Source of the DNA: Candidatus Bathyarchaeia archaeon
Lineage (GTDB): Archaea > Thermoproteota > Bathyarchaeia > Bathyarchaeales > Bathycorpusculaceae
Assembly: GCA_049516875.1 (NCBI GenBank)
Contig: JBEKSS010000008.1
Location: 1 to 64,000 of the forward strand
Direction: 5' to 3'
Length of the DNA: 64,000 bases
Under the pieces are notes generated by a model. It ran no database searches. It was not told the DNA's origin and saw only the letters and a program-made list of their open reading frames with translations. Below, in pieces: positions 1 through 49,372 of this stretch (position 1 is its first letter; each line of letters opens with the position of its first letter). The position numbers were made by a program, and so were the translations under genes.

Positions 1-297
1 GATTGTTAACATGACCATCTTCTCGGCATCGGAACCACATTTCTCCAGCAATAGCGCGCGCGCTCGTTGACGGAACATAAAAATCAGGAATGCAGTATAT
101 GCAATTAAAGTGAATTTTATTAAAGTTTCACTATAGATGAATGGTGAGAAAAAGGTGCGCGCGCGTCTGGTTCTACGGAAATTGCTTTGACTGAATCAAG
201 CGTTTCCGTGTAGGACATCTCGCCTCATTTTCCCTTCGCGACTGGCGTTCTGGGTGGAAAGAATTCTGCGCCCGCTGAACCCACAGGAGGCAAGCAA

Positions 298-468
298 TTT
301 TACCGGTAAGCATGTGTTCAATTCTTAACCCCCGCACACGCCCACGCACAACGTCATAAATTGAGTTTATCTACCTGAAATAAGCTCGAAATAGGACTTG
401 AAATTGTAGTGCGGGGGGTGGGACCCCCACCCTATTTTACCGGTAAAAATATGCTTTGAATATGCTTG
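298..468. repeat. Dispersed ~170-bp repeat family A, copy 1 (TTACCGGTAA palindromes near both ends, central GGGGGGTGGGACCCCCACC)
   Basis: Near-identical to 3342-3510; diverged homologs at 5545-5702 and ~9440-9550. Confidence 0.9.
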
Positions 469-498
469 GCGAGAGTTCGAATCTCTCCCGGGCTACCA
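469..498 (+). pseudogene. tRNA 3'-end remnant (T-arm, acceptor 3' strand, CCA); att-like, possibly tRNA-Gln
   Basis: GAGAG-TTCGAAT-CTCTC-CCGGGCT-ACCA: perfect T-stem/loop; no 5' half upstream. Confidence 0.75.
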
Positions 499-627
499 TC
501 AACCCCTAGTCAGGGCAGGGTTCAAATCCTCGTTTTGCAGTTTGAATTTATCGCGCGCTTTCTGTAATAGAGAGAGTGTAATTGGTAGAGAGATAATAGG
601 TAGAGAGAGTGAGTAGTAGAAGTGTGT

Positions 628-656
628 GGGATAAAACTTTACCCCAAACCCAAACT
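628..656 (-). repeat. Repeat family B, (GGTTT)n-GGGGTAAAGTTTTATCC, inverted copy
   Basis: Reverse complement of the motif at 1281-1326, 2241-2268 and 3264-3297. Confidence 0.8.
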
Positions 657-662
657 TTCCTA

Positions 663-5995: not shown

Positions 5996-6382
5996 GTGAA
6001 ATCAGTAGACGAAATTAGGTTTGAGGAACGCGCTATGGCTCGGGGGATACTTAGAGCTGCTATCTACTTGGCGTCGGCAGTTCTGATCTTCTTGGGCTTC
6101 GTCTTCGTTGTCTCAGTTAACCTTGGCCTTGTTTACTTTCTTGTGGGACTGGTCTTCCTCGCAGTCGCCGGATTCCTGCTCTTCCTTAGCCGGGAGAAAA
6201 AACCTATAGAGATTAAGCAAACCCTAACGGTCACTGGACCGTTAGAGGCTAAACAAATACGTTGCCCAAACTGCGGAGCTCTCATCGACGCGACCAAGAC
6301 TGAAGTTATCGACGGAAAACCCTTCGCTACGTGCCGCTACTGCGGGAACAAGCTCGAACTCACAGAGGAACCAACATGGTGA
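5996..6382 (+). CDS. Two-TM membrane protein with C-terminal zinc ribbon
   Basis: Two hydrophobic helices; CPNC...CRYC; overlaps the next gene's start. Confidence 0.8.
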   Translation: MKSVDEIRFEERAMARGILRAAIYLASAVLIFLGFVFVVSVNLGLVYFLVGLVFLAVAGFLLFLSREKKPIEIKQTLTVTGPLEAKQIRCPNCGALIDATKTEVIDGKPFATCRYCGNKLELTEEPTW

Positions 6383-8028
6383 CGAAACAGCAGCTCGCCT
6401 GTTTATCCGTCATCGTACTAATCTTGTGCCTCGGATCATTGCTGACAAGGGTGCAACTTGCAAGGGCTCAGGATGTAACCTACTCCGTAAGCCAAGAGTG
6501 GGCCCAAATCCAGATCAACACGGACAGGTCGATATACATTCTGTACAACATAACGTTCACGTATCTGTCCGGCTCACCTGAAGGCATATTCACTGTGGGG
6601 ATGCCCCAAGGAGGCTTCCAGATTCAGTATGTGCAAGACCTGTTGGGAGCCACACTTCATTATCAAGATGCGTCATCGGGAAGCTTCTACGGCATCGACG
6701 TTTACCTCGAACAACCCGTTGCGGTGAACCAGTCCTACACATTCGTTGTTTACGCTCTAGTTCCAGACATGATCCATGAGGATACCCCTAACCCGGGAAA
6801 CGTCGACCTGCTCTTCTACCAAGCAACGTTCACTAGCGCCAGTGGCTCCGTAACAGACCTACGCGTGGAAATCATCCTCCCACCAAGCGTACAGACAACC
6901 GAAGTGAAATACCCCTCAGGCTCACCCTTCGACAATGTCTTCACAGAAACGAACAACGACACCGCCGTCTTCTGGGAGAGAACAGACTGGCCGCCAGGCC
7001 AACAGTTCACCTCTGGCGTTTCTTTCCCAGCCACCTACGTTTCCTCCGCGCCGACCCCGACCCCTGCGCCATTTCCAGACGCAGCAACCACGGTTTTATT
7101 GGTCCTAGTCTTTTTCATAGTGGGCGCCGCGATATTCGTGGGCTTGAAAAGAGTTGCCAGAATGGCCTACGCCACGCCCCGCATGTCGATTGAAGCCTTG
7201 GGCGCCAACCGAACACTCACGGCCGTCGAGGCAGCCCTCGTTTTGGATCAAAAGCCCGTCCGCGTCCTCACCATGATTCTCTATGGGCTTCTCCTAAAGC
7301 GCATGGTCGCCGTCACCGAAACTGAACCCCTCATAAAACTCACCAAACTCGAACCAGCCCAAGGCCAGCCGGCTCCACGACCGAGATACTACGAAACAGA
7401 TTATCTGAACGCCATAAGACCAGACGGAACCCTCGACGAGCAGAAGCTCGCCAGCACCTACGTAGAACTCACCAATACGGTAGACCAAAAGCTACGCGGC
7501 TACTCAAGAGACGACACGACCAACTACTACAAATCCATAGTGGACAAAGCCTGGACCCAGGTAACCCAGGCCGGAACCCCAGAACTCAAGGGCGACGCCG
7601 TGGACAAGAACCTCGAGTGGCTACTGGCCGACGACAAATTCGAAGACCGCTTCAGAACAGCCTTCCCACCAGGAATAATCATCTATCCAAACCCAGCTTG
7701 GTGGTGGTACTGGGGCGGCCTACACGCACCGACGGGACAACAAAGACCCCCAACGCCAGTCACAACACCAACGGCCCCGCCAGCCCAAGCCAAACCAATC
7801 CCGGGCCAAGACTTCGCCAACAACATCGTACGAGGACTCCAGACAGCCTCAAACAACATCGTCAAAAACGTTCAAGACTTCGCCAACAAACTCGTGCCTT
7901 TCAAGTCTCCCCCAAGCCAGCATCCAGTAGGCGGAAAACCATCCTGCGTGTGCGCATGCCACGCCTGCGCATGCGCCTGTGCCTGTGTAGGCTGCGCTTG
8001 CGCCTGCGCCGGCGGAGGTGCAAGATAG
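6376..8028 (+). CDS. Single-pass membrane protein (DUF2207-like architecture) with C-terminal Cys-Ala repeat tail
   Basis: Signal peptide, extracellular domain, Pro/Thr linker, TM helix; ends SCVCACHACACACACVGCACACAGGGAR. Confidence 0.85.
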   Translation: MVTKQQLACLSVIVLILCLGSLLTRVQLARAQDVTYSVSQEWAQIQINTDRSIYILYNITFTYLSGSPEGIFTVGMPQGGFQIQYVQDLLGATLHYQDASSGSFYGIDVYLEQPVAVNQSYTFVVYALVPDMIHEDTPNPGNVDLLFYQATFTSASGSVTDLRVEIILPPSVQTTEVKYPSGSPFDNVFTETNNDTAVFWERTDWPPGQQFTSGVSFPATYVSSAPTPTPAPFPDAATTVLLVLVFFIVGAAIFVGLKRVARMAYATPRMSIEALGANRTLTAVEAALVLDQKPVRVLTMILYGLLLKRMVAVTETEPLIKLTKLEPAQGQPAPRPRYYETDYLNAIRPDGTLDEQKLASTYVELTNTVDQKLRGYSRDDTTNYYKSIVDKAWTQVTQAGTPELKGDAVDKNLEWLLADDKFEDRFRTAFPPGIIIYPNPAWWWYWGGLHAPTGQQRPPTPVTTPTAPPAQAKPIPGQDFANNIVRGLQTASNNIVKNVQDFANKLVPFKSPPSQHPVGGKPSCVCACHACACACACVGCACACAGGGAR

Positions 8029-9345
8029 TTGAATGTACTTGACAAGTTAAGAGCAAAACCCAGAGAGGTGCTGCACCACCTCAAAGTCGCAGAGGGCGAA
8101 TACCGCGGTCTCAGACTCCATCTACGGTTAGAGAAAAACGGAGAAGGAGTTCTGGTCATAAACGCCTCCAGGGTCATCTTCCTAAACCCGACAGCCACCG
8201 AAATCGTACACTCTTTCATGCAAGGAGAAAACGAGGAACAAACAGCAAAGAGAATTCTAAGACGCTACAAGGTTGACGCGGAAACCGCCCGAAAAGACAT
8301 CAAAGACACACTGTTCACCATCAACTCCTTCGCCAAGACACCTGACGTGTGCCCCGTCTCCTACCTCGGCGTAGAAAAGATAGAACCCTTCCAAAAAGAG
8401 CTGAGCGCACCCTACCGCATGGACATAGCCCTCACCTACCGCTGCAACAACAAGTGCATACACTGCTACGCCGGAGGCCCAAAACAAACAGAAGAGCTAA
8501 CCACACGAGAATGGCTGAACGTGATCGACAGACTCCAAGCCCTAGGCATCCCTCAAGTGGTCTTCACAGGCGGCGAACCAACCCTAAGAGACGACCTGTC
8601 AACGCTGATAGCGCACACGCAAGAAAAAGAACTGGTCTGCGGCCTCGTCACGAACGGACGAAAACTCAAAGACAACGCATACCTCAAAACTCTCATCGAC
8701 GCAGGACTAGACCACATGCAGATAACCCTTGAATCACACGACCCAGAAGTCCACGACAAAATAACAAGCGTCAACGGAAGCTGGGACGAAACCGTCGAAG
8801 GACTCAAGAACGCCATCGCATCCCAGATCTACACGGTCAGCAACACCACACTCAACCAGCTAAACGTCAACGACATAGACGGCACGATAGAATTCGTCCA
8901 CAGCCTCGGACTCAAACACTTCGCCTGCAACAGCCTGATCTACTCTGGGAAAGCACCAGAAATAGCCAAAACCTTCGCCCTAGACGAAGCAGCACTAGAG
9001 CCAATCCTGACCCGAATAAGGGACCAGACCAGAAAGCTAGGAATGGAATTCACTTGGTACACCCCGACGCAATACTGCCAAACCGACCCTCTGAAGCTGG
9101 AACTGGGAATAAAAAGCTGCAGCGCCTGCCGCATAAACATGGCCATCGAACCAGACGGAACAGTCATACCCTGCCAAAGCTACTTCGTCCCACTCGGAAA
9201 CATCCTCAAAGACAAATGGCAAAAAATCTGGAAAAACCCCACCTGCCTGAAGCTCAGAAAACGAGAATACGCCCCAGACAAATGCTACGAATGCCCAAGC
9301 CTCCAAATATGCGGAGCGGGCTGCCCACTAAAAACGGAAAACTAG
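8029..9345 (+). CDS. Radical SAM/SPASM protein with N-terminal PqqD/RRE-like domain
   Basis: CNNKCIHC, FTGGEP, CSAC..PDGTVIPC..CYEC..CGAGC; N-terminal LNPTATEI..YKVDAETARKDI. Confidence 0.9.
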   Translation: MNVLDKLRAKPREVLHHLKVAEGEYRGLRLHLRLEKNGEGVLVINASRVIFLNPTATEIVHSFMQGENEEQTAKRILRRYKVDAETARKDIKDTLFTINSFAKTPDVCPVSYLGVEKIEPFQKELSAPYRMDIALTYRCNNKCIHCYAGGPKQTEELTTREWLNVIDRLQALGIPQVVFTGGEPTLRDDLSTLIAHTQEKELVCGLVTNGRKLKDNAYLKTLIDAGLDHMQITLESHDPEVHDKITSVNGSWDETVEGLKNAIASQIYTVSNTTLNQLNVNDIDGTIEFVHSLGLKHFACNSLIYSGKAPEIAKTFALDEAALEPILTRIRDQTRKLGMEFTWYTPTQYCQTDPLKLELGIKSCSACRINMAIEPDGTVIPCQSYFVPLGNILKDKWQKIWKNPTCLKLRKREYAPDKCYECPSLQICGAGCPLKTEN

Positions 9346-9803: not shown

Positions 9804-11249
9804 TTGGCAAAGTTGATGAAAACTAGAATCGGTACTGCCATTGTTATTGCGATGTTCATTCTCGTTGTGGGCTTTCCAGGATTTGCATCGACTGTATCGG
9901 CAGCGCGACCTGAAAACGGCTGGTCAGCGCATCCATTGATGCATGTTCGTCCGATGGCGGCAACTCCATCTCCGAATGCTCTCACTCCGACGCAGATACG
10001 AAGCGCGTATGGCCTTCCTTCCGCGGGGGGCGCGGGAACAACTATCGCCATCGTCGACGCTTACGATGACCCAAACGTCCTGAACGACCTGACCGTGTTC
10101 AGCACCCAACACGGTCTATTACCCATCAGTTTTGTAGAACACAAGATGGCAACAACGATTAGCGTGGACACGGGCTGGGCGCTTGAAACATCCTTGGATG
10201 TCCAATGGGCTCACGCCATAGCGCCAAGCGCGACCATACTGCTGGTTGAGGCCAGATCAAACAGTCTAGGCGATCTTCTCGCCGCCGTTAATTACGCTAC
10301 AAGCCAACCGAACGTCGTAGCAGTATCTATGAGCTGGGGCGGAACAGAGTTCAGCACAGAAACCTTGTATGACAGCTACTTCAGTTCCTCCGGAATCACC
10401 TTCTTCGCATCCTCTGGAGACAGTGGAGCGGGCGTAATATGGCCTTCAAGTTCACCGAACGTAGTCGCCGTCGGCGGAACAACCCTCAAATTTGTCTCTG
10501 GATCAGTAGTTGAGACGGGTTGGAGCGGAAGCGGCGGCGGCGTAAGCCGCTACGAGCCCAAACCAGCCTATCAAACAAACTTCGGCCTCTCAAGCAGCAT
10601 GCGCGCCGTGCCTGACGTTTCCTACGACGCAGACCCGAATACGGGCGTTCCGGTGTACGACAGCCTAGGCTATTCTGGCCAGTACGGATGGTTCCAAGTG
10701 GGCGGCACAAGCGCGGGCGCACCGCAATGGGCAGCAATCCAAGCTCTAGGGCTCACCACATCAAACAACAACTTCTACCAAGACGCAAAATCATCGGCTT
10801 ATGCTTCATACTTCAGAGACATCACAAGCGGCTCAAACGGGTACTCGGCAGGCCCTGGTTACGATTATGTCACAGGTTTGGGCAGCCCACTCACGACGAA
10901 TTACACGCTGTCGACGACACCACCGCCGCCGCCACCGCCAACTGCAGACTTCACGGTGTCGGCAATACCAACCAGCTTGAGCATCAGGACAGGATCTTCC
11001 AAAACTTCGACGATCACGATAGCGTCCTTCAACGGATTCACAGGCACAGTCACGCTCTTCGCGTCTGCCCCGTCTGGCCTAACCGCCACCTTTAACCCGA
11101 CTCAAGTTTCTGGGGGATCTGGCACATCAACGCTGACGATAAGAGTAGCGAGCAACATCAGATCTGGAACGTACACAGTGACAGTGAAGGGCACAAGCGG
11201 CTCGTTAAGCCACACCGTAAGTGTAAAGGTAACAGTCACGCGACGATAG
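9804..11249 (+). CDS. Secreted S53 (sedolisin-like) serine peptidase with C-terminal Ig-like domain
   Basis: ETSLDVQWAHAIAP, SSGDSG, GGTSAGAP, GYDYVTGLGSP; poly-Pro linker. Confidence 0.9.
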   Translation: MAKLMKTRIGTAIVIAMFILVVGFPGFASTVSAARPENGWSAHPLMHVRPMAATPSPNALTPTQIRSAYGLPSAGGAGTTIAIVDAYDDPNVLNDLTVFSTQHGLLPISFVEHKMATTISVDTGWALETSLDVQWAHAIAPSATILLVEARSNSLGDLLAAVNYATSQPNVVAVSMSWGGTEFSTETLYDSYFSSSGITFFASSGDSGAGVIWPSSSPNVVAVGGTTLKFVSGSVVETGWSGSGGGVSRYEPKPAYQTNFGLSSSMRAVPDVSYDADPNTGVPVYDSLGYSGQYGWFQVGGTSAGAPQWAAIQALGLTTSNNNFYQDAKSSAYASYFRDITSGSNGYSAGPGYDYVTGLGSPLTTNYTLSTTPPPPPPPTADFTVSAIPTSLSIRTGSSKTSTITIASFNGFTGTVTLFASAPSGLTATFNPTQVSGGSGTSTLTIRVASNIRSGTYTVTVKGTSGSLSHTVSVKVTVTRR

Positions 11250-11271
11250 ACACCTTAAACACATCCTCACC

Positions 11272-11279
11272 TTTTTTTT
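11272..11279 (+). terminator. Archaeal oligo-T terminator
   Basis: T8 run ~22 nt after the peptidase stop. Confidence 0.5.
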
Positions 11280-11444
11280 GGATTAACACGGCAAACAGCA
11301 AAGAATGTGCTTTAGCGCGCGCTATGCTGAGTTCCATATCCGAACCAGCAATACCAGTTATTCCTCTAGTGGTTACACAAGTGTTTAATCCACAGATGGC
11401 CCATATAAACTAGCTATTCAGAAGCTACAACAGAAGGATTTTGG

Positions 11445-14400
11445 ATGAAACAGTCACCTGTCGAGCTATCAAAAGAAGGCACTTTGGAAACAGCCAAAGC
11501 GCCAGCAGTAAGAGTCTTGCATGTGGATGATGATGCGTGTTTCTTGAAGACTGCAAAAGCAATCTTGGAAATGCAAGGAACATTTCAAGTGGACACTGCC
11601 TCATGTATTGAAGAAGCATGGGAAAAGATGAGGAAGGAAGAATACGATACGGTCGTCAGCGACTATCAGATGCCTGGAAAAAACGGCTTACAGTTTCTCA
11701 AGGAACTAAGAGAGAAAGGAAACAGTATTCCTTTTATTATTTTCACTGGAAAAGGCAGGGAAGAAGTGGCCATTAAAGCATTGAATCTTGGTGCCGACGG
11801 ATACTTCAACAAATCTGGACACGCCGAAACAGTATACGGTGAATTGGCACATGGCATACGACAGATCGTTGATAAAAGAAGACTAGAGCAATCGTTCTTA
11901 AAGAGCGAAGATAAATACCGACGACTGGTTGAAACTCTGCATGAAGGAATCTGGGTTATCGACAAAGATTCTCGCACAACCTTTGTCAATCCTCGCATGG
12001 CAGAGATACTGGGATACGACATAGAGGAAATGAAAGGAAGACATTTGTTCTCATTCATGGACGAACGTGAAGTGGAAATTGCTAAGCGCCTTCTGGAAAG
12101 ACGCAAGCAGGGTATCAAAGAACAGCACGATTTCGAGTTTCTCAGAAAAGATGGAACACGCGTCTATGTAACACTGGAGACATCGCCAATCACCGATGAC
12201 AACAGAAATTACATCGGGGCACTTGCAAGCGTAATGGACACTACTGAACGCAAAAAAGCTGAAGAAGACTTGAGGAACAGTGAGGAAAGATGGCGGTCAC
12301 TTGCAGAAGGCTCACCTGACCACATCATGCTGCTTGACCTTAAGTTTAATATCTTGTACATCAATCGAACCGTTCCTGACCTGAAAAGAGAGGAGGTAAT
12401 TGGAACATCTACGTTTAACTACATTCCTCCTGAATGGCATCGAGTTGCGAAAGACTGTTTCAAGCGGGTCATAGCAACAGGCAAGACAGACCATCACGAC
12501 ACTGAATACCGAACTAAGGATGGTGAAGTGAGATACTTTGACGTACGGATTGGACCTGTATTCCAAGAGGATAGGGTAGTTGCTTTGATAAGCAGTTCAA
12601 CAGATGTCACCTCGCAGAAGAAAGCTGAGGTAGAACTGAGGAACACAAAGAATTACCTTGACAATCTTTTGAATTATGCCAACGCGCCAATCATAGTTTG
12701 GGACAACGCAAAAAGGATCACCTTATTCAACAATGCATTCGAGGTCCTTACTGGTCGCAAAAAGGAGTCTGTGCTAGGAAGAAACATAGATATCTTGTTT
12801 CCTCCCTTACAAAAAGAAGAGATTCTGCAAACTATAGAAGGCGCTACGAAAGGTGAGAAGTGGAAATCAGTTGAGATACCCATTCTGTGTAAGGACAAAG
12901 AAACGAAAATCGCACTTTGGAACTCAGCAAATATAACAGACGAAGAAGGCAAAATAGTAGCCACTATTGCTCAAGGACAAGACATCACAGAACGCAAGAG
13001 GGTTGAGGACGCGCTCAAGCAAAGTAAAGAGAACTTTGAGTCTCTAGCGGAGAATGCCTTTGACGGCCTCTTAGTAGGGACCCAAGGAGGAGTCCATGCC
13101 TATGCGAACAAAAGGGCTGCTGAGATAACAGGTTACACCGTCGCCGAACTGCTTAGGACCACGATCAAGGAGCTGGTGCATCCTGACGAGTCTGAGAAGA
13201 TTTTGGAAAGATATCGAAGAAGGATTGAGGGAAGGGCAGTCCCGAATCCCTGTGAGACCGTCATCATTGCAAAAGACGGGAGAAGCGTTCCAATAGAGAT
13301 AGCTGGCGCACGGACCATTTGGGAGCGCAACCCCGCTGACCTGGTTTTCTTCCGTGACATCACCGAGCGCAAGAAGATGGAGAACACTTTACGAGAAAAT
13401 GAGAGAAAATATAGAGTACTCGTCGAAAATATTCCGCAAAAGATATTTATTAAGGATAAAAATTCAGTTTATGTATCTTGCAATGAGAATTACGCACGGG
13501 ATTTAAAGATCAAGTCTAATGAGATTATGGGCAAGACGGATTATGATTTTTATACTGAGGAATTGGCTGAAAAATACAGAGCAGACGATAAAAGGATTAT
13601 GGAGTCTGAGGAGACACAGGATATAGAGGAGGAGTATATCCAAAACGGACAAAAAGTGTATGTTCACACAGCCAAAACACCTGTCAAAGACGAAAATGAC
13701 AATGTAATTGGCGTACTGGGCATTTTCGGGGACATCACTGAACGCAAGAAAGCGAAAGTGGCGCTACAGGAGAGTGAGGAAAGATTTCGGGCGATAGTTG
13801 AGAGTGCGCCTTTCGGCTATTACCGCGTGGGGAAGGATGGGCTTTGGCAGTATGTAAATCCCGTGTGGGAACGCATGCATGGGCTCTCACTTGCGGAGGT
13901 TGTTGGCAAGTCTTTCGAAATCACCCAGACTGAAGACTCTGTGGAGCAGGCAAAGGAGTACGCCAAACGAGCATTGGCTGGCGAAACCATAGTAGGTGAG
14001 TTTAGCAGGCTCACAGGTGAAGGTGACATTGAGTACCACAGTTTCAACATACAGCCTGTTAAGCGCGATAACGAAATTGTGGCGATTGAAGGTTTCATTA
14101 ATGACATCTCAGAGCGCAAGAAGGCATTGGAGCGGTTGAGGGTTCTTAACGAAAAGTTGGAGGTTGTTGGAAAGTTGACCAGGCATGACGTTAGAAACAA
14201 ACTCTCCGTAGTCACAGGCAACGCTTATCTGGCTAAGAAGGCGTTGCCAAACGACCACCAAGCGTTATCATACATAAAACGCATCGAGTCTGCTTGCGAA
14301 CAATCGACGAGGATTCTTGATTTTGCAGCAATCTATGAGATACTAGGTGTTGAAGAACCCCATGTGGTTGAGGTGGGCAAAGCTGTTGAAGAGGCGGTTT

Positions 14401-14822
14401 CGCTGGCCACGGACTTGCATGGTGTAAAGGTGGTAAATGAGTGCCGTGGATTGGTCGTCTTGGCAGATTCGCTGTTGAAGCAGCTCTTCTACAATCTGAT
14501 TGACGATTCGTTGAGGCATGGTGAAAAGGTCAGTCGAATCAGGCTTCACTATAAAGAAGGAAAAAGTGGATTGAAGCTGTTCTATGAAGATGACGGCGTC
14601 GGCATAGCTTACGATGAAAAACCGAAAATCTTCAAAGGTTACAGCAAGACCAGAACCACAGGTTATGGGCTTACTCTGATCAGAAGGATGATGGAAGTCT
14701 ATGGCTGGACAATAGAGGAGAAGGGTGTACCAGGCAAAGGAGCCCAATTTGTCATAACAATACCTACGCGCGCGGACTCTAACCCGAAACAGAGACACAG
14801 CAACAAAAAGGCATTCTACTAA
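11445..14822 (+). CDS. Hybrid sensor kinase: REC, ~6 PAS/PAC, HisKA-HATPase
   Basis: LHVDDD, SDYQMPG, repeated DITERK, RHDVRNKL, DDGVGI, GYGL. Confidence 0.93.
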   Translation: MKQSPVELSKEGTLETAKAPAVRVLHVDDDACFLKTAKAILEMQGTFQVDTASCIEEAWEKMRKEEYDTVVSDYQMPGKNGLQFLKELREKGNSIPFIIFTGKGREEVAIKALNLGADGYFNKSGHAETVYGELAHGIRQIVDKRRLEQSFLKSEDKYRRLVETLHEGIWVIDKDSRTTFVNPRMAEILGYDIEEMKGRHLFSFMDEREVEIAKRLLERRKQGIKEQHDFEFLRKDGTRVYVTLETSPITDDNRNYIGALASVMDTTERKKAEEDLRNSEERWRSLAEGSPDHIMLLDLKFNILYINRTVPDLKREEVIGTSTFNYIPPEWHRVAKDCFKRVIATGKTDHHDTEYRTKDGEVRYFDVRIGPVFQEDRVVALISSSTDVTSQKKAEVELRNTKNYLDNLLNYANAPIIVWDNAKRITLFNNAFEVLTGRKKESVLGRNIDILFPPLQKEEILQTIEGATKGEKWKSVEIPILCKDKETKIALWNSANITDEEGKIVATIAQGQDITERKRVEDALKQSKENFESLAENAFDGLLVGTQGGVHAYANKRAAEITGYTVAELLRTTIKELVHPDESEKILERYRRRIEGRAVPNPCETVIIAKDGRSVPIEIAGARTIWERNPADLVFFRDITERKKMENTLRENERKYRVLVENIPQKIFIKDKNSVYVSCNENYARDLKIKSNEIMGKTDYDFYTEELAEKYRADDKRIMESEETQDIEEEYIQNGQKVYVHTAKTPVKDENDNVIGVLGIFGDITERKKAKVALQESEERFRAIVESAPFGYYRVGKDGLWQYVNPVWERMHGLSLAEVVGKSFEITQTEDSVEQAKEYAKRALAGETIVGEFSRLTGEGDIEYHSFNIQPVKRDNEIVAIEGFINDISERKKALERLRVLNEKLEVVGKLTRHDVRNKLSVVTGNAYLAKKALPNDHQALSYIKRIESACEQSTRILDFAAIYEILGVEEPHVVEVGKAVEEAVSLATDLHGVKVVNECRGLVVLADSLLKQLFYNLIDDSLRHGEKVSRIRLHYKEGKSGLKLFYEDDGVGIAYDEKPKIFKGYSKTRTTGYGLTLIRRMMEVYGWTIEEKGVPGKGAQFVITIPTRADSNPKQRHSNKKAFY

Positions 14823-14914
14823 TTTGGGGACAAGCCAGCGCGCTAATCCTTATCCAAGATTAATAACGTTTTTCCTCTTCGCGTGCGTCAATGAATGTTG
14901 GAATGTGGTTATTT

Positions 14915-15364
14915 ATGAACTTGCGGGAACTGATGATAACGAACGTAATCACCGTGGACAAAAACATGACGGTGCAATTGGCTGCGGGAACCATGAACAA
15001 GAAGAGAATAGGCTGCTTGGTGACCGTTGACAGAGAGGGAGTCAAAGGAATCCTGACAGAAAGGGATATGCTCATCAGAGTCTTGGAAGCAGGCAAAGAT
15101 CCCAAGACAACTATGGTGTCAGACGTTATGACCCAGAGCATTATTTTCGGGAATCCAACCATGCAGCTAGTAGAAGCCACGCGTCTAATGTTTCAAAATG
15201 GAATCAAGAAGCTGCCAATACTAGAGGATAATCGATTGGTCGGCCTAGTCACGCTGACCGACATAGCTCGCGCGACAAGCTGTGACAAGAAAACCATTGA
15301 TCTCATTGAAGCACTGTCAAACATGCACAAGATCAGCTCAGTTCAAGAAGACATCAACATATAA
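14915..15364 (+). CDS. CBS-pair protein
   Basis: IGCLV..GILTERD; IKKLPI..LVGLVTLTDI. Confidence 0.9.
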   Translation: MNLRELMITNVITVDKNMTVQLAAGTMNKKRIGCLVTVDREGVKGILTERDMLIRVLEAGKDPKTTMVSDVMTQSIIFGNPTMQLVEATRLMFQNGIKKLPILEDNRLVGLVTLTDIARATSCDKKTIDLIEALSNMHKISSVQEDINI

Positions 15365-15773
15365 ACACTTAGCGCTCGGGGTGCGTCTCTCTATTTTTTC
15401 GTTATTGAATGCCTTGTTTCTGTTATCGAAAATTGTAGCGCGCGCGCTAGGCGAGGCAAAAGCTGAATTATAGGTCACTTCTCATGGCGATTTAAGAATG
15501 GGCATGTGCGCTAGACTAAGAGTCACTTTAACCTGACTCTCCCTGTGTGTAGGGTGTTGTTTCTGCGTCGGTCTTTTATGCTCAGGAAGACAGGGGTGTA
15601 GTTTGAGCTTGATGAGTCGTGCTTTCACCAGAGCATATTCAGGCGTGTTGCCCAAATAATTCCCTCACAATGCGAGGTTGTTGTCCTCTGGTCAGAAAGC
15701 TTTCGAGTTTCCCTCTTGAAAGGCCGATTCGTCAAGCTCAGTAAATTGACCCGCGCAATGAGAGGTTAAGGTC

Positions 15774-15974
15774 GTGATTAAGCAGAGGAACCTTGGGGCT
15801 TGCCTTCAAGGTGAAGGTATCGACGTGGGTAGAGAGAGCATTTTTGTGAATATTACTTTGTATCGTGTTCCTGGCGATTTGGTGCGAGAGTTTGCTCGCA
15901 GGGTGGTTGTGAACTATCCTGGAGGGATGAGTGAAGCAATTCAGGATTTGATGAGGAGGGCGTTGAAGGAGTGA
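15774..15974 (+). CDS. Small ribbon-helix-helix-like protein (start uncertain)
   Basis: VNITLYRVPGDLVREF...MSEAIQDLMRRAL. Confidence 0.55.
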   Translation: MIKQRNLGACLQGEGIDVGRESIFVNITLYRVPGDLVREFARRVVVNYPGGMSEAIQDLMRRALKE

Positions 15975-30301: not shown

Positions 30302-30425
30302 TACTGTTAAAAGAACCGCATACGGTTCTAGCGCGCGTGCAGTTGGCTGAGGAATATATACCTATATCATGGCTACTGCATTGCTACACGTGACACATCA
30401 GCGCGCGCGCTAAACCCTAAAACTC

Positions 30426-33810: not shown

Positions 33811-34095
33811 CTCCCAGCAATTGTATGAGGGAGCTTGATTGAATAGCCCGCAAGAGCAACAGGACGCATTAGTTCGTTCTATGCATTCTAGCGCGCGCGG
33901 AGGAGTTCGTTGCACACTCAATCTTTGCTTTCTGTGTAAGGGTTTTTCCGTTTAGAGCAGCATGGGGTCTTAGGAAATTGAAGCAGATTCTGAGCTGTTT
34001 TCACCGAAGACTTTGCAGAACCCCTTCCTAAGAACACTTTTAAGATTCAAAATCAACTGGTGGAGTACATAGTGGTATGAAGCTGGTGAACTTCA

Positions 34096-38630: not shown

Positions 38631-38706
38631 TTTTTGGAAGGGGATTTGAACCCCCGAACTATCGCTCAGTAGGCGGTTGCTTGTGTCCGTACTAAGCTAT
38701 CCATGC
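38631..38706 (-). tRNA. tRNA-like/pseudo-tRNA; apparent anticodon ACT; broken acceptor stem
   Basis: GCATGGA TA GCTT..AAGC A ACCGC CTACTGA GCGAT AGTTC GGGGG TTCAAAT CCCCT TCCAAAA folds as a cloverleaf. Confidence 0.65.
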
Positions 38707-40577: not shown

Positions 40578-41077
40578 TTTTTCCCTTCACCATGATGTTG
40601 ATTTACTTGTATGTACGTCATGGTAGTTATACTTCATGTATAACATCTCCTTCGTAAACGTTTTAGTTTATAATGTTTAGGGGGTCTGAGTATTTATGGT
40701 TTTGGTATCTTGTTGGCGCGCGCAACTTAACTCAACAATACCGCACTAAGAAGCAGTAAAACTGCACTCATCTTTTCTAGGGTGTTTCTATGGTCTTATC
40801 GTTAGCGCGCGTTTTTCAAGAAAGAGAAATAGTCGCTTGTGGAAACCGTCTTCCGAGACGCTTAGCATCGCATTTCCCAAGGATTAAGGAAAATCATCTC
40901 TGTCGATTGTATCAGGAGCCGGTTCAGTAGTTCCATTAGCCATAGTTCCATTAGCCATCAAAGCATCGACAAAAATTAAACAAATGCGCTTTAGTATCTC
41001 CAAGCGCACGCGCGCGCTTTTTCTATTCGTTATGTTCATTTTCTTTTGTCGAAGTGAGAAATAGTTGAAAATGTCAA

Positions 41078-44212: not shown

Positions 44213-44319
44213 ACTTTATCCACACCTATACTTAACATCAGCAATTTTAATCTATTCCCAAATCTTTGGCAAATCGGATAATCTTTCTGATCCAATCTTT
44301 TGTTGAAAGGTAAGCGCGC

Positions 44320-44395
44320 GCTGTTGGTGGTCTTGTCTACGTGGGATCCAATGATAACAGTACATACTGTCTGAACGCTGCTACTGGAACATTGG
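44320..44395 (+). pseudogene. Isolated single PQQ-like beta-propeller repeat fragment
   Basis: AVGGLVYVGSNDNSTYCLNAATGTL, between two (GC)4 tracts. Confidence 0.65.
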
Positions 44396-44520
44396 CCATT
44401 CATCAACGACCGCTGCCCTTAGCGCGCGCTCAATGTACTCGGCGTTTCAACAGGAAACCGGGTTGAACTGGCGCGCTCTTCATTTTCTGATTCTTTTCTG
44501 CCGTGCCAATATCTGATAAA

Positions 44521-45345
44521 TCATGCCAAGAGTATCTCTGCGGAGGTATACAGATTTGGCCAATATCTCTCCCATGTTCTGAATCCTGTGCCATGATTGT
44601 GATGGGTGCGAGCATTGAACTCTATTTGCAGCCATCCTTCTTTGATGCCAGCTAAGAATCTGGACAAGTCTGCACCTTGAAGTAACTGGGTCTTCCCAAT
44701 TCTCATTTTCTGCTTTACACCTTCAGCTAACGTTTCCATTGAAACGTAAACCATGTTTCTTATCTTTTGACGAACCTTATTCCCCAAACCATCAAACGTC
44801 CAATATGGCACGGGTCGGAGATCACCCAATCCCACACGCCTTTGAACTTCCTCAAGCCAACCGCGATACTCTATCCTACCCGGAACTTTGGCGCTGTCAA
44901 AGTGCAGCTCCACTCTCTTCAATTCATCATTGATAGTAGCAATGAACCCGCGTTCCGAAAAACCAGCGGCGTCAATGTCGATTCTCAAGCTTCGTTCCAT
45001 CGGACCGTATTTCGGAATCGGCCAGCCATAGTCAACTAGAAGTTTAGGGATTACTTTTCCTGGATAGGGTTCAAAGCGAAACAGACTGATCAACGAGTTG
45101 CTGGTCGTCCTGTGGGTCTTCAGCTCAAATTCGCCGTAATCCGCTATCGGTATATTATTTTCTGGTATATGCAAAAGGTCCTCAAGGGTATTGCCGAGTC
45201 CGCCATCTTTATCTTGCCTATGGCTTGTAAGAGTTATCCACCCTCTCTCACGTATTTCCGAAAGACATTGAACCAATTCGTCTCTGGTATAGACCAATTC
45301 TCGCCTTTCTGGTATTTTCCTAGACCCAAAGACCCATCTGTCCAC
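44521..45345 (-). CDS. MvaI/BcnI-family restriction endonuclease
   Basis: GGLGNTLEDLL.I.ENN...D.GEFELK, HNHGTGFR. Confidence 0.85.
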   Translation of the reverse strand: MDRWVFGSRKIPERRELVYTRDELVQCLSEIRERGWITLTSHRQDKDGGLGNTLEDLLHIPENNIPIADYGEFELKTHRTTSNSLISLFRFEPYPGKVIPKLLVDYGWPIPKYGPMERSLRIDIDAAGFSERGFIATINDELKRVELHFDSAKVPGRIEYRGWLEEVQRRVGLGDLRPVPYWTFDGLGNKVRQKIRNMVYVSMETLAEGVKQKMRIGKTQLLQGADLSRFLAGIKEGWLQIEFNARTHHNHGTGFRTWERYWPNLYTSAEILLA

Positions 45346-45983: not shown

Positions 45984-46667
45984 TTGGTTCAAGAAGCTGG
46001 TCGTTCAAATCCTTCGGCAGATGTGAATCAGTTACACGGTTTGACTTATCGGTTAATGCTAGAGTATAAGAAGAGATATTACGAGTCGAAGGTTGACGCT
46101 TTTCTTTCACGTATGAGCCTAGCGGATATTCCGAGTGAAACGAGGAGAAGGCTTAAACGAGAAATGGTCACGCCACTCGAAGCGAATGGAGTAGAATACG
46201 CTAACTTTATGGAAGAGGCTTCGAGACGTGTTAGTCAAACGTTCCAAGTTGTGAGCGGGAATATTGCGGAATTGTGTGCAGAAGGAGAACTAAACAGAGT
46301 CGGTCTAAGAGAGAACGTTCACTATAAGCGAAAAATCGAAAGAACCGATATTGTCGTGTATTTTCCGAATTTTCAGAACCAGAGAGGAAGACATAGAGTA
46401 GAGGTTAAGAATGTGAAACTTAGAGAAAGAGGAACAAGAGGATTAGCTTTCGATGGCGATTCAATGTTTGGGTTCTTTGATTCGCCTTCTGAATTTACTC
46501 AGTCTAATGTTGAAGTGATAGACGCTCAATGTTTGAGCACAAGAGGGTATTGCTATCTTCCACCTTCAACTCTTGACCAAATGCAGTATAGAGGGAATCG
46601 CTTTAGGCCCAATACACGATTCGCTCAAGATGTGCTCTATTTCACTCAAAATGGACATTTGCCTTAG
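45984..46667 (+). CDS. Putative type II restriction endonuclease (CCGG-family-like)
   Basis: SGNIAE, TDIVV, EVK..KLRER; convergent with a methyltransferase. Confidence 0.65.
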   Translation: MVQEAGRSNPSADVNQLHGLTYRLMLEYKKRYYESKVDAFLSRMSLADIPSETRRRLKREMVTPLEANGVEYANFMEEASRRVSQTFQVVSGNIAELCAEGELNRVGLRENVHYKRKIERTDIVVYFPNFQNQRGRHRVEVKNVKLRERGTRGLAFDGDSMFGFFDSPSEFTQSNVEVIDAQCLSTRGYCYLPPSTLDQMQYRGNRFRPNTRFAQDVLYFTQNGHLP

Positions 46668-47578
46668 CTTGGTCGCCAAAAGTCTAGGATATATTCGAAT
46701 GTTGTTCCTAGAGTAATGTAGTTATTTGGATAACCGAAAATTCCGACTTTATTAACTAGGTTTCTCCTATCCCAAATAATGATGTTTCTTAACTCATACC
46801 CTGCTTTTTGCATGTTTTCAATTAGGTAAAGGTGAATCGGAACACGTTTGTTTTCCCACCACAAATCTGTGACATTAATAACGCAATGTCCTTTTTTCCT
46901 CATTAAGGGTAAAATGCCGTGATAGATTTCTCCTATTGTCTGAGCGTATTTCTGTCCGTCCATAGTGCCTAAATCTCTTGGGTCTGTCGAATATTGTTGA
47001 ACCTTTAGATAATGCTCATTCGTTCGCAAGTTTCCTCTTATGCTCTTGTTCTTTCTCGGTCTATTGAGTATGTTCGCATAAGGTGGCGAAGTCACACAGA
47101 GAGAAACAGTTTCTTCTTTCAAGTATTGCGGTATGTTATGGGCTTCTTCACATATTGCAATTTGCTGGGTCTCTTGAATGAGCCGAGTTTGGGCAAGTCT
47201 TGATTTTGATGTTCTAATATATTCTTCTTTCAAGTCAAAACCAACAGCATTTCTGTGAACGTCTTGAGCGGCTAGCAAGGTCGTTCCAATTCCAACGAAA
47301 GGGTCTAAAACGAGTTCTCCTTTGTGAGTAAGTAACTCAATGCATTTTTTTGGAAGACCAATCGGAAAAACTGCGGGATGTATGTTCTTATCTCTGATGT
47401 CCCGTTTTTCATAGAAGAACTCCCAAATAGCCACTTGGTCTTTAATCCACTCTTTTGCAGTAAGACAATTCATATGATTAGGTGGACAATTACAGATTCG
47501 AGTATGACCAATATTTAGAGGTTTGTCCACATCAAGACTCTGAACCATCTTTTTTCCTTCTCTCAATTGAATAAGCAT
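46664..47578 (-). CDS. Site-specific DNA methyltransferase (N4-C/N6-A type)
   Basis: HPAVFP, VLDPFVGIGTT, TSPPY. Confidence 0.92.
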   Translation of the reverse strand: MLIQLREGKKMVQSLDVDKPLNIGHTRICNCPPNHMNCLTAKEWIKDQVAIWEFFYEKRDIRDKNIHPAVFPIGLPKKCIELLTHKGELVLDPFVGIGTTLLAAQDVHRNAVGFDLKEEYIRTSKSRLAQTRLIQETQQIAICEEAHNIPQYLKEETVSLCVTSPPYANILNRPRKNKSIRGNLRTNEHYLKVQQYSTDPRDLGTMDGQKYAQTIGEIYHGILPLMRKKGHCVINVTDLWWENKRVPIHLYLIENMQKAGYELRNIIIWDRRNLVNKVGIFGYPNNYITLGTTFEYILDFWRPS

Positions 47579-47667
47579 TTCTCTTCAATTTAAGGATTTG
47601 AAGCTGTTTGATGAATCGCCCTTTTTGGGCGCTAGTCCCTCCGCTCCGCCCTTATGCTGAAAACGCG

Positions 47668-48789
47668 CTACCTCCCTGTTCCTTTTTCTAACGTGTCTAG
47701 CAGTTTCACTGGGAAGTGTTTGATCTCTTTGTACCTGTTTTTTCGGTATGTAAAATCTCTCTCATCTTTTTGCTCTAGGCTTTGTATCGTGGCTAAGAAC
47801 TCGTCGAATATTGGCTCCATTATTTGTAGGAAGCTCCATCCTTTCTCTATCAAGATGTTGTTGTCAATCATTCCGGTTGAAGCGATGTCATGCCAAACCT
47901 GTAAGTGTATTGCATACTCTGTTAACCTGACAACGTACAGCCCACGTTCAGGCACAGTTCTTTTAAGTTCTCGAAGGGTCTCAGGATCGATACCGGCGTT
48001 GGGTATGATGACATAACCAACATTAGCGTTCAATCCCTTCATGTAATCTGCAACTTTCCTTATCTTGTCTCGTACAGATCTTAACTCCTCCGTGGTTACC
48101 TCATCAGCAACAATCTTCACTCTGTGATTGTCAACGAAAACATCAGGTTCATATTGGCCGATTTTCTCGTTGAATTTAATTTCCCCATTGTTTGACCAGA
48201 AGAGGGTTGTAATTTTCTTGACGCTTTGTTCGTGAACCATCTGGGCTGTTCGAGCCTCAGCCAGCTCTTCGAGCTGAACTCTAAGTGGGTCCCTCTCAAG
48301 ATCGTCGATTTTCCGCTTGAGTGCTCTTGTTTCCTCTCGCATTTGGCTGTGTTCTCTTTGTTCAACCATTTGGAAAGCAGACTCAAGTTTCTCGGCGATG
48401 TTGCCTAGATGCTCTGCGGTTTCCCGGTAGACCTCGGAGTTTCGATTCGTAATCTCTCTGAACGCGTTAGCGGTTGTTTCGCTCATCTTTCCATAGGTGT
48501 CCTTCAGCAAGTTCACGGCGTCATGAAGCCTTTCCGAATATTCCTGATAGAGTTTTTCTCTTAACTCTCTGGAGTCCGCGTCTTGTTTGTCCCTGATATG
48601 TTCTATCCTCTCCTCTATTCCCTGCAGACATTTCGTCCGTTCCTCTAGCATCGCTAGTTGGGTTAATACGTTCGTGTTTGGTCGCCGGATGGAAAACAAC
48701 AACCTCAGTTTTCCTGTTCTTGCGTAAAAAACGATCAACGCCGTGGACAGTACGCCTAGAGGTACAAGCAGCCACCACAACCATGACAT
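47668..48789 (-). CDS. RmuC-like protein
   Basis: N-terminal TM, long coiled coil, PDVFVD nuclease-like domain. Confidence 0.55.
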   Translation of the reverse strand: MSWLWWLLVPLGVLSTALIVFYARTGKLRLLFSIRRPNTNVLTQLAMLEERTKCLQGIEERIEHIRDKQDADSRELREKLYQEYSERLHDAVNLLKDTYGKMSETTANAFREITNRNSEVYRETAEHLGNIAEKLESAFQMVEQREHSQMREETRALKRKIDDLERDPLRVQLEELAEARTAQMVHEQSVKKITTLFWSNNGEIKFNEKIGQYEPDVFVDNHRVKIVADEVTTEELRSVRDKIRKVADYMKGLNANVGYVIIPNAGIDPETLRELKRTVPERGLYVVRLTEYAIHLQVWHDIASTGMIDNNILIEKGWSFLQIMEPIFDEFLATIQSLEQKDERDFTYRKNRYKEIKHFPVKLLDTLEKGTGR

Positions 48790-49084
48790 GTTTTTAGCCC
48801 CTTAAAATTCTTTCATGCAATTCTACATTTAAGCAATACAACGATATTCGTAGAATTATATAAATGTTGCGTTGTAGATTTGTAGGTTAGGTCGGTAAGC
48901 ACCCGCGCGCGCCGTGGCTCATCTTCCAGAAATATCGCTAAAATTGATTTCTCTCTTTTTTTCCAAGATTCTTTAGGGAAACTAGTGAAAAGCCTCAAAA
49001 TCGCCTTCTTTTTTCCTCTAATGGCTGAATATTCAATGATTCAACGAGAAGGCTTTTAATACGTTCTAACATTTTGTTATAACA

Positions 49085-49372
49085 ATGTGCTTGAATATGA
49101 AAAAAGAAATGGTTGAAGAGGGGATGGTGGTAACTAAACCCAGGAAGGTCATTACCGTTGGACATAGCAAAGCGGTCACTCTTCCAAAAAAATGGCTAGA
49201 CGTTCAGTTGTGGCTAGGAAAGGAAGTCATTGAACTTGCGAGCATCGGGAATAGTGCGGTCATATTCTGCAACCCTAAGGATGTACTCAAATGGAAAAAC
49301 ATCATCAAAAAAATCGAAGATCAACCTTTGTCCGCGCGCGCCGGTCTCAACCCACAAACTAAGAATTGTTAG
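49085..49372 (+). CDS. AbrB/MazE-type DNA-binding protein
   Basis: RKVITVGHSKAVTLPKKW. Confidence 0.75.
   Translation: MCLNMKKEMVEEGMVVTKPRKVITVGHSKAVTLPKKWLDVQLWLGKEVIELASIGNSAVIFCNPKDVLKWKNIIKKIEDQPLSARAGLNPQTKNC

Follow-up and report, generated by a model that had tools for sequence, protein, structure and literature searches.

A highly iterated GC palindrome at homology boundaries in the genomes of several Bathyarchaeia lineages

What is so short a sequence as a perfect run of alternating G and C, eight to ten nucleotides (nt) long, doing many times over in a single stretch of archaeal DNA? The question is raised by the first 64 kb of contig C8 in the genome of a Candidatus Bathyarchaeia archaeon (G000, the source genome; metagenome-assembled, 2.43 Mb in 20 contigs, 97.5% complete), and this whole 64-kb stretch is called the window here. 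A tract is defined as a maximal alternating G/C run of at least 8 nt, and the word is the octamer GCGCGCGC. The original prediction, made from the window, held that the tracts mark the junctions of a local patchwork of gene fragments. Our own reading, to which we give about an even chance, is that GCGCGCGC with its (T)A and T(A) flanks is a lineage-specific highly iterated palindrome (HIP) and acts as a physical site of breakage and joining: compact single-gene modules enter, leave or replace one another there, and are occasionally inverted.

The window contains 18 tracts of 8–10 nt, each starting exactly where it had been predicted. The ten runs of 6–7 nt that had been listed with them are likewise present, together with seven others (at 10601, 15269, 18475, 28056, 32115, 44471 and 57250), and the regions of 23–28.8 kb and 51.4–64 kb are indeed free of tracts, the 6-mer at 28056 and the 7-mer at 57250 being the only such runs there. 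The word is the top-ranked 8-mer of the window, with 20 copies as against 0.46–1.07 expected from Markov models of order 0–3, a range that agrees with the predicted chance level of about one tract per 64 kb; CGCGCGCG, the opposite phase, occurs 12 times (0.41–0.94 expected by the same models). GCGCGCGC is also the top-ranked 8-mer of the entire source genome, where its 447 copies compare with an expectation of 24.6 (order 1) to 30.7 (order 3). The resulting ratio of observed to expected copies, 14.6–18, is the hyper-abundance by which HIPs are recognized. In total, the source genome has 416 tracts, or 1.7 per 10 kb, and the window has 2.8 per 10 kb. The window exceeds its own genome only modestly in density, and the excess belongs to the genome rather than to the locus. 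The genome-wide count that had been proposed as a check upheld the enrichment itself but left little that is special to the window, and the supposed local patchwork feature proved to be an iterated palindrome of a whole genome and lineage.

The tracts had been described as Z-DNA-prone (GC)n sequence; a generic tract of this kind is not supported by the counts. Maximal (GC)4 runs number 212 in the source genome, as against 28 (CG)4 runs, which is the chance level; (GC)5 runs number 48 and (CG)5 runs eight, only eight runs reach 11 nt or more, and CGCGCGCG lies at background genome-wide. The numbers of 9- and 10-nt runs match those of an 8-nt core with near-random flanks. Over all 416 tracts, A is found at position -1 in 59%, T at +1 in 56%, T at -2 in 39% and A at +2 in 36%, and the full preferred form is (T)A-GCGCGCGC-T(A). 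AGCGCGCGCT accordingly appears in 98 copies (about 2 expected) and TAGCGCGCGCTA in 23 (about 0 expected), while TGCGCGCGCA has six. The statement that many tracts of the window read TA-...-TA holds on both sides for two of them (11315 and 15438) and on one side only for about six more. No conservation was found in the 416 copies beyond 2 nt on either side of the 8-mer, nor was any T-run or hairpin context. Left and right flanks are statistically independent (260 copies), and the same copies showed no target-site duplication, no direct-repeat coupling and no palindromic coupling past the preference of each side by itself.

Since it is phase-specific, is conserved over only 8–12 nt and has independent flanks, the unit is a defined palindromic word and not a microsatellite, Z-DNA tract, hairpin repeat or miniature inverted-repeat transposable element (MITE). 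A dinucleotide microsatellite or Z-DNA tract was rejected from the phase-dependent counts and the lack of a slippage-like length distribution. Hairpin repeats of the repetitive extragenic palindromic (REP) or bacterial interspersed mosaic element (BIME) type are imperfect palindromes of 20–40 nt, and were rejected because the present unit spans 8–12 nt and a perfect alternating-GC 8-mer has no loop. A MITE or cut-and-paste transposon does not fit the uncoupled flanks of the 260 copies or the absence of a fixed element between paired tracts. A fixed mobile element was rejected as well: the spacing of neighboring tracts has only a weak excess at 60–120 nt, and there is no common internal sequence and no target-site duplication.

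The coincidence of tracts with points where homology starts or stops, noted in the original prediction, was examined with 174 loci (2.24 Mb) from other Bathyarchaeia aligned to the source genome. The internal ends of high-scoring segment pairs (HSPs) of at least 85% identity and at least 200 bp were counted. Of these 111 ends, 22 lay no more than 2 nt from a tract and 29 no more than 5 nt, and controls in which the ends were shifted by 60–400 nt gave a mean of 1.3 and a maximum of 3. After the ends had been collapsed by their position in the source genome, 16 of 79 fell within 2 nt of GCGCGCGC (447 sites). In the same collapsed set, the other GC-only 8-mers (4043 sites) received six ends, AT-only 8-mers (6324 sites) three, maximal (GC)3 runs (345 sites) six and maximal (CG)3 runs (158 sites) one. 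A further set without the source genome, consisting of 160 loci compared all against all, gave six of 172 ends within 2 nt of a tract, against 0.8 (maximum 2) in controls; the fraction is lower there because many of these loci come from tract-poor lineages. The relatives of the distant tract-rich genome G024 are only 64–76% identical to it, too divergent for junction analysis. Most tracts that lie near alignable DNA sit at alignment ends. At least a fifth of recent homology boundaries thus fall on the edge of the word, and by these alignments GCGCGCGC is the preferred joining point of DNA with different ancestry.

The clearest single case is the TA-GCGCGCGC at 17130–17137 of the window. In L109 (L100 and L106–L110 denote loci or metagenome contigs from other Bathyarchaeia), a block with an Fpg gene is followed by TA-GCGCGCGC, 1.6 kb with two open reading frames (ORFs), TA-ACGCGCAC and a block with an aldolase gene. 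In the window, the same two blocks are joined through the single tract, so that the two sequences form a filled/empty pair; the aldolases are 93% identical at the amino-acid level. L106 and L108 have the same right-hand junction as L109; in L107 a perfect tract stands about 25 nt from where homology begins, with different DNA upstream; and L110, which is 84% identical, aligns through the joint without a tract. Judged from these alleles, the tract at 17130 is a demonstrable insertion/deletion joint.

Joints of this kind were of two sorts. A joint was called two-sided if the other genome also has an alternating run of at least 6 nt within 15 nt, and one-sided if it does not. Among 21 non-redundant tract-associated boundaries, 11 were two-sided and 10 one-sided, and in nine of the latter the outer edge of the tract is exactly where homology ceases. 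In L109, for example, a tract at 19750–19758 is followed by DNA that is 97% identical to contig C3 of the source genome, which is tract-less at that place; on contig C14 of the source genome, a left-hand module ends at the same nucleotide as in genome G025, where 60 nt of other DNA then precede a tract. A module of about 311 bp lies between tracts in two different contexts, one in genome G003 and the other on contig C3 of the source genome. Chaining of alignments gave 13 indel or replacement events (about nine non-redundant), of which about six have a perfect or degenerate tract on at least one edge and two clear ones have none. One inversion-type breakpoint falls on TA[GCGCGC]TAA in both genomes.

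A 400-bp element at C14:20167-20565 (L100:166-565), in a tract-rich part of that contig, has 98–99% identity in three congeners and in G025, and 92% in G003. Four genomes have the start of homology precisely at AGCGCGCGCT; the boundary in G003 is displaced inwards by 22 nt, and a tract is found there too. The distance from the element to the RNase P RNA gene is 2.6, 14, 26 and 37 kb in four species. The element is near-identical between species whose genes are about 80% identical, and its reverse strand has a very basic ORF of about 41 codons with a promoter-like upstream region; it may encode a small protein or an RNA. As a driver of the tracts it was rejected, since it is confined to family f1 (six of 201 genomes) and is also found in tract-poor genomes.

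The word is concentrated between genes. By the crude codon-usage gene caller on which all intergenic and coding classes rest, and which probably makes the intergenic fraction of 20% too high, 338 of the 416 tracts of the source genome are intergenic (7.0 per 10 kb, versus 0.40 in coding DNA), a density about 17-fold higher. GCGCGCGC itself is found 361 times in intergenic DNA, where 4.75 copies are expected by order 1 (observed/expected about 76) and 68.7 by order 3, an order at which the motif is already built into the model. In coding DNA there are 80 copies, against 19.7 or 8.9 expected from the compartment-specific background; the word is thus enriched there too, and the coding copies cluster towards the ends of genes.

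The copies are also uneven along the chromosome. Counts in 20-kb bins are about two-fold overdispersed after normalization for intergenic length, and runs of at least four consecutive tract-bearing spacers number 10, against 0.8 expected from a null matched for spacer length. The longest run in the genome comprises six spacers and lies in the window (9804–20161; P = 0.028 for a maximum of at least six by the same null). Segments bounded by tracts are compact single genes, each arranged as a tract, about 40–50 nt, an ORF, 0–6 nt and the next tract, and nothing about the genes is unusual: they include a ZIP-type transporter, winged-helix proteins and small uncharacterized proteins. Gene fragments, as originally supposed, are not what is joined: the modules are mostly intact single genes. 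No integrase or transposase look-alike was seen among them by eye and by motif, or by Pfam for part of them. In short, the word clusters in arrays and in islands of variable gene content.

Two other signals accompany this distribution, the first of them weak. In self-duplications of the source genome, 38 HSP ends lie within 5 nt of a tract, versus 11 in controls; this figure is inflated by one locus matched by a dispersed repeat, and both copies end at a tract in just four of 62 pairs. The repeat is about 124 bp long and occurs at C1:508849-508972 and at least 20 other sites of the source genome (for example C2:122707-122829, C4:157383-157504 and C14:45313-45435). Its copies are about 80–85% identical to each other and resemble a MITE or a family of small RNA genes, and they are unrelated to the GC tracts. 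The second signal is from contig ends, four of 34 of which lie within 200 nt of a tract (1.1 expected) and nine within 1 kb (4.7 expected), the start of the window's own contig being one of them; this suggests that strain-level variation at tract-rich DNA interrupts assembly. A crude scan of the assembly detected no CRISPR (clustered regularly interspaced short palindromic repeats) array.

The tracts and larger units of the window are as follows, with the strand given where a feature has one.

54–63: (GC)5 tract, preceded by 53 nt of contig C8
157–165: 9-nt tract GCGCGCGCG, intergenic
9804–22946: array of single-gene modules; six consecutive tract-bearing spacers at 9804–20161, continued by the tracts at 19773, 19945 and 22655
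11315–11322: TA-GCGCGCGC-TA, in the spacer ahead of a PAS histidine-kinase gene; first spacer of the array
14767–14774: CG-phase 8-mer in the last codons of a 1125-aa PAS/HATPase ORF; an in-frame insertion of about five codons
15438–15447: TA-(GC)5-TA, in the spacer between a CBS-domain gene and an Fpg/Nei-like gene
17130–17137: TA-GCGCGCGC, the demonstrated indel joint relative to metagenome contig L109
18798–18805: GCGCGCGC, in the spacer after a class-II aldolase-like gene; homology to L108 and L109 stops 33 nt before it
19773–19782: (GC)5 tract, intergenic
19945–19952: CG-phase 8-mer in a doubtful 79-aa ORF
22655–22663: 9-nt tract, about 320 nt upstream of the start of homology to the congeners' core operon, and not at that boundary
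22985–28785, plus strand: core beta-oxidation operon, 80–81% identical in nucleotides and syntenic in five congeners; no tract of 8 nt or more
28786–51387: 22.6-kb island, absent from genomes G002, G003 and G004, with eight of the 18 tracts
30401–30410: (GC)5-TA tract, within the island
33891–33899: TA-GCGCGCGCG tract, within the island
40716–40723: GCGCGCGC tract, within the island
41009–41017: 9-nt tract, within the island
44314–44321: A-GCGCGCGC-T tract, in the spacer beside an MvaI/BcnI-type endonuclease gene
44422–44429: TA-GCGCGCGC-T tract, 100 nt from the tract at 44314 and in the same spacer
48904–48912: 9-nt tract, within the island
49333–49341: 9-nt tract, within the island, in a doubtful 95-aa ORF

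Fifteen of the 18 are intergenic, one (14767) is in the last codons of an ORF, and two (19945 and 49333) are in short doubtful ORFs, much as the original prediction had it. Its further statement that the tracts gather in variable DNA was also borne out, by the array of 9.8–22.9 kb and by the 22.6-kb island at 28.8–51.4 kb that three congeners lack. The array holds one gene per inter-tract segment (an Ig-like protein, the PAS kinase, the CBS protein, the Fpg/Nei-like glycosylase, the class-II-aldolase-like protein and proteins of no assigned function). It is not syntenic in the congeners, in which the genes of 11–23 kb are located elsewhere in the genome. At the nucleotide level, the window matches the five congeners only across the beta-oxidation operon. 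A nucleotide-level division into core and accessory DNA with the congeners was dropped, because at 65–81% identity alignments are confined to conserved genes, whether the test region is tract-poor or tract-rich. In G002, G003 and G004, about 45 nt separate the operon from the AMP-ligase gene that comes next, which in the source genome lies at 51,388 onwards of the window; because the two abut in these three genomes, the DNA from about 28,786 to 51,387 is a species-specific island.

The island encodes an MvaI/BcnI-type restriction-modification (R-M) pair, a BrxC/D-like ATPase, a DUF4062 protein and many ORFs of no family. The MvaI/BcnI-family endonuclease (44521–45345, minus strand) lies about 1.3 kb from an N4/N6 DNA methyltransferase (46664–47578, minus strand) that matches its Pfam model in permuted order, and the two look like a type II R-M pair. 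As PADLOC gave only two weak matches for ten island ORFs, the island as a whole is not called a defense island. At 38635–38703 (minus strand) within it there is a tRNA-like Rfam match (33.7 bits, E = 0.003) where ARAGORN finds none; it may be a fragment of a tRNA gene or a divergent or intron-bearing archaeal tRNA, and it could mark an old integration site. Elsewhere in the window, a radical-SAM/SPASM enzyme with a PqqD-like domain, the architecture of a peptide maturase, is encoded at 8029–9345 (plus strand). A family-less ORF of 565 aa (6331–8028, plus strand) lies directly upstream and ABC-transporter genes adjoin, and the locus may be a cluster like those for ribosomally synthesized and post-translationally modified peptides.

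The word is not confined to one species. In the genus, the source genome has 98 copies of AGCGCGCGCT and the four others counted have 29, 87, 69 and 115, with 2–6 copies of the reversed control; all five genomes are tract-rich, and 16 other genomes of the family and order have 0–1 copies. Five further genomes, reached through the fetched loci, have 45–104 copies (controls 0–7), one being a complete chromosome with a GC content of about 40%. In a survey of 200 other Bathyarchaeia genomes at least 80% complete, in which a genome was called tract-rich if it had at least 13 copies of the decamer and no more than five of the control, 18 genomes of five families qualified (4 of 29 in family f1, 7 of 9 in f25, 5 of 5 in f34, 1 of 5 in f26 and 1 of 1 in f28), and none of 76 did in f23 and f33. 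The trait is thus patchy and polyphyletic within the class. The positions of tracts turn over between congeners, and no tract stands beside the core operon in any of the five. In several f23 genomes (genera g53 and g73) the control word TCGCGCGCGA, in CG phase with T/A flanks, reaches 13–26 copies and the GC-phase decamer 2–16; the rise of TCGCGCGCGA may be a composition effect or a different iterated word.

Because its distribution is lineage-specific, a trans-acting factor fits the trait better than a purely physical property of DNA. The original prediction had named a recombinase or an end-joining process, and neither was identified. C5 methyltransferase (PF00145) and Vsr gave no matches in the source genome, which is 97.5% complete. 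Two candidate methylases of the N4/N6 type recurred in none and in two (only at E of about 1e-4) of five distant tract-rich genomes. The cognate methyltransferase that goes with other HIPs was not recovered with the queries tried, and further methylases of unassigned specificity remain in the source genome, one of which may yet be cognate. Ku is encoded in 55 of 201 Bathyarchaeia genomes, including the source genome (C9:92481-93017, minus strand), and bacterial-type end joining appears to be widespread in parts of the class. Ku is, however, frequent in the tract-poor families f23 (23 of 50) and f33 (17 of 26) and genus g20 and rare in the tract-rich f25 (1 of 9) and f34 (1 of 5); its occurrence is uncorrelated with the trait, and a scar of Ku-dependent non-homologous end joining was rejected for this reason. 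Gyrase, found in three of 201 genomes, none of them tract-rich, was also rejected. No IS110-type recombinase or reverse transcriptase was found in the source genome, and no member of the integrase family among the 40 window ORFs scanned with Pfam, no genome-wide scan for PF00589 having been made.

The joints could be produced as follows. The DNA would break in or near the palindrome, in the simplest case through a sequence-specific nuclease that cuts at its outer edges and leaves long self-complementary GC ends. Re-annealing and rejoining of two such ends would restore one tract, giving two-sided joints and, after a deletion, a solo tract, and insertion between filled-in ends would duplicate it. 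A trimmed or filled end joined to any other DNA would give a one-sided joint, with homology stopping exactly at the edge of the tract and with or without the word. Selection would keep the surviving copies in spacers, and transitions would erode them. Breakage at the edge is favored because recombination between copies, or joining by microhomology, accounts for the two-sided joints and the filled/empty pair but not for the ten one-sided joints. A stronger version of this reading, which we hold to be doubtful though worth stating, is that several Bathyarchaeia lineages have a dedicated cut-and-join system that needs only the 8–12 bp of (TA)GCGCGCGC(TA), religates the ends in either orientation, makes word-flanked genes exchangeable and adds a copy of the word with each insertion.

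A number of observations weigh against a break-and-join role of the word. About 72–80% of the homology boundaries have no tract, eight tracts lie inside collinear alignments, and among the families searched (C5 methylase/Vsr, Ku, gyrase, methylases, IS110 and reverse transcriptase) there was no candidate recombinase or joining enzyme. In the window, both outer edges of the island lie away from tracts, as does the boundary upstream of the core operon, to which the nearest tract (22655) is about 320 nt distant. The tract at 14767 is no junction: relative to paralogues it is part of the in-frame insertion of about five codons, beyond which homology resumes. Beside the joint at 17130 itself, a clear indel has no tract (L109 5492–7256 versus window 16118–16198). 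The proposal that the tracts are junctions therefore held for 17130 and failed for 14767, the island edges and the eight collinear tracts, and the proposed search for synteny breaks in relatives gave the 16 of 79 collapsed ends on the word beside a majority of tract-less boundaries and those eight cases of uninterrupted homology. The boundaries number only tens, and some contigs come from related populations. In every event, filled and empty describe states of an allele, not ancestral and derived conditions. Moreover, at such divergence the alignable DNA is mostly coding, so that alignments tend to stop in spacers anyway; this bias is countered only by the nucleotide-level sharpness of the boundaries and by the word-specific controls.

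Several other explanations have to be weighed against this reading. The first, which we consider unlikely, is that the word is a passive hotspot, made and kept by biased repair or methylation-linked substitution as may be so for the cyanobacterial palindrome HIP1, and favored as microhomology in illegitimate recombination or template switching with no dedicated nuclease or recombinase. The mode of variation is what it would predict: three of the eight collinear tracts are identical in both genomes and five differ by 1–4 substitutions, mostly transitions, with no clean indel of 8–10 nt, and genome-wide the transition neighbors of GCGCGCGC are enriched 2.3–2.65-fold, most transversion neighbors only 1.1–1.5-fold. 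The filled/empty pair at 17130 is also the outcome expected of direct-repeat recombination, and a precedent exists in HIP1, two copies of which bounded a precise 352-bp excision and which is reported to spread by substitution and to be polyphyletic (PMC13756078). One-sided joints, however, require no microhomology, and the other GC-only 8-mers, although nine times commoner, carry fewer boundaries. Nor does a methylation-linked origin agree with the lack of matches to C5 methyltransferase and Vsr in a 97.5%-complete genome or with two DNA-methylase candidates that are not common to the five distant tract-rich genomes, and the 17-fold intergenic bias is unlike HIP1.

The second, that the tract is the product of joining and not its site, seems quite unlikely to us. 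Here a short GC filler would be synthesized or templated when unrelated ends are sealed, and would later be re-used or inherited. Such a junction scar would explain why 10 of the 21 boundaries are one-sided (module–tract–X in one genome, module–Y without a tract in the other), why the 400-bp element in G003 has a tract at a boundary moved by 22 nt, and why the empty allele at C7:227980-228042 has a tract where relatives have 1.1–3.2 kb and no tract at that edge; independence of the flanks is likewise expected of two unrelated ends. Untemplated filler should vary, however, and what is found is a fixed word in a fixed phase, with (CG)4 at background and 9- and 10-nt runs as frequent as an 8-mer core with random flanks implies. 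In four species a tract occupies the very same nucleotide position with different DNA next to it; the occurrence of Ku does not follow the trait, and no reverse transcriptase was found in the source genome. Cutting at the edge with fill-in or trimming accounts for the one-sided joints equally well.

A third explanation, in our judgment decidedly unlikely, is a functional intergenic element: a binding site or signal (bound by an insulator or nucleoid protein, silencing acquired genes, marking transcript ends or serving as a "self" watermark for DNA uptake) that delimits expression modules, with homology ending there because modules survive shuffling. Compact modules are in keeping with this, as are the presence of a tract at the same nucleotide beside a conserved small gene in four species and the placement of tracts within spacers, which is broad but has an excess 0–60 nt past stop codons and a dip 0–40 nt ahead of starts. 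HIP1 has been proposed as a watermark for uptake or horizontal gene transfer (10.1101/2024.09.10.611283, PMC13756078). Selection on the integrity of modules alone, however, cannot place breakpoints within 2 nt of the word. The density per 10 kb of spacer is similar in divergent (6.1), tandem (6.4–7.6) and convergent (9.2) spacers, and the element is for this reason neither purely a promoter nor purely a terminator. T-runs and hairpin contexts are lacking, and the positions turn over between congeners, with no tract beside the core operon in five relatives.

Finally, that the junctions are chimeras of assembly, binning or amplification at palindromic microhomology is very improbable, even though the source genome is metagenome-assembled and somewhat more of its contig ends than expected are close to a tract (within 200 nt for 4 of 34, versus 1.1), because an 8–10-nt repeat is far below the k-mer length of assemblers and because motif and junctions recur in independent assemblies: the enrichment in 5 of 5 congeners, in five more genomes (one of them a complete chromosome) and in 18 of the 200 class genomes, which come from many studies, the identical right-hand junction in L106, L108 and L109, and tracts at identical positions across species.

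Full-text literature searches found no description of GCGCGCGC as a repeat in archaea or Bathyarchaeia. HIPs have a history of three decades in cyanobacteria, and no agreed function is known for them; HIP1 is common within ORFs. HIP1 is the closest known analogue of the archaeal word. Both are GC-rich octameric palindromes, top-ranked among 8-mers and at least 15-fold over-represented, with a patchy, polyphyletic distribution, occurrence at deletion endpoints, a suspected role in genome plasticity or gene transfer and, as far as the eight collinear tracts suggest for the archaeal word, variation by substitution rather than indels. HIP1 (GCGATCGC) is 15–300-fold over-represented and conserved both within and between ORFs (PMC5861425), HIPs are tied to cognate methylases (PMC4390886), and HIP1, first noticed as the two ends of the precise 352-bp excision, has a polyphyletic distribution and is reported to spread by substitution (PMC13756078); more recently it has been linked to transformation and gene transfer (10.1101/2024.09.10.611283). 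The archaeal word differs in its sequence and domain of life, in being about 17-fold denser between genes, and in that no C5 methyltransferase or Vsr was found in the source genome and no methylase common to the tract-rich lineages with the queries tried. It also has a measured association with breakpoints and arrays of gene modules, a link that we did not find reported for HIP1 in the portions of those sources available.

Other systems resemble the archaeal word in part. The GC clusters of yeast mitochondria are also short GC-rich palindromes scattered in spacers and linked to genetic exchange; they are palindromic GC-rich elements in AT-richer spacers, sporadic among strains, with fast turnover, and proposed as recombination hotspots (PMC4478555). 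They are, however, hairpin-forming mobile elements of about 30–40 nt or more with a 2-nt target duplication, whereas the archaeal unit of 8–12 nt cannot fold, has no target duplication and in eight collinear cases showed no insertion of the word alone. Integrons offer another partial parallel: their single-gene modules lie in arrays with a recurring recombination site between them, homology between arrays breaks at the site, and an insert has two copies around it where the empty array has one. The attC site of integrons is an imperfect inverted repeat of 57–141 bp with R and L boxes, and the arrays stand beside an IntI integrase and an attI platform. In contrast, the archaeal site has only 8–12 conserved nt with no attC-type inverted repeat in 416 copies, its modules carry their own short upstream region, its arrays are dispersed over the chromosome, and no IntI-type integrase was seen among the 40 window ORFs scanned, a genome-wide scan for PF00589 not being part of the work.

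Joints that regenerate a short palindrome are also known from restriction-site-mediated rearrangement. In classical accounts of EcoRI-promoted recombination in vivo, cut sites rejoin in any pairing, the palindrome is regenerated and inversions are possible. Restriction sites are normally avoided in the host genome, whereas the archaeal word is enriched in its host, and no cognate endonuclease or methylase was found; the only clear R-M pair of the window is of the MvaI/BcnI type, which by family targets CC(W/S)GG-like sites and not GCGCGCGC. DNA uptake sequences (DUS, and the similar uptake signal sequences, USS) are over-represented short words that a competence receptor recognizes and that are enriched in core DNA. 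The archaeal word shares the over-representation but is enriched in variable rather than core DNA.

Several Bathyarchaeia lineages possess an archaeal counterpart of the HIPs with a different word, in which the link to genome rearrangement can be measured directly from sequence. This opens a test, in public metagenomes, of what such palindromes do and of single-gene exchange in uncultured archaea with few recognizable mobile elements, and the tract-rich and tract-poor sister genera are an ideal set-up for phyletic profiling of the responsible factor. A sequence-specific cut-and-join activity, should there be one, would also have a practical side, as an 8-base GC-specific enzyme. The dedicated system, if real, would amount to a minimal-site, integron-like form of gene shuffling in archaea and would offer a mechanistic model for highly iterated palindromes in general.

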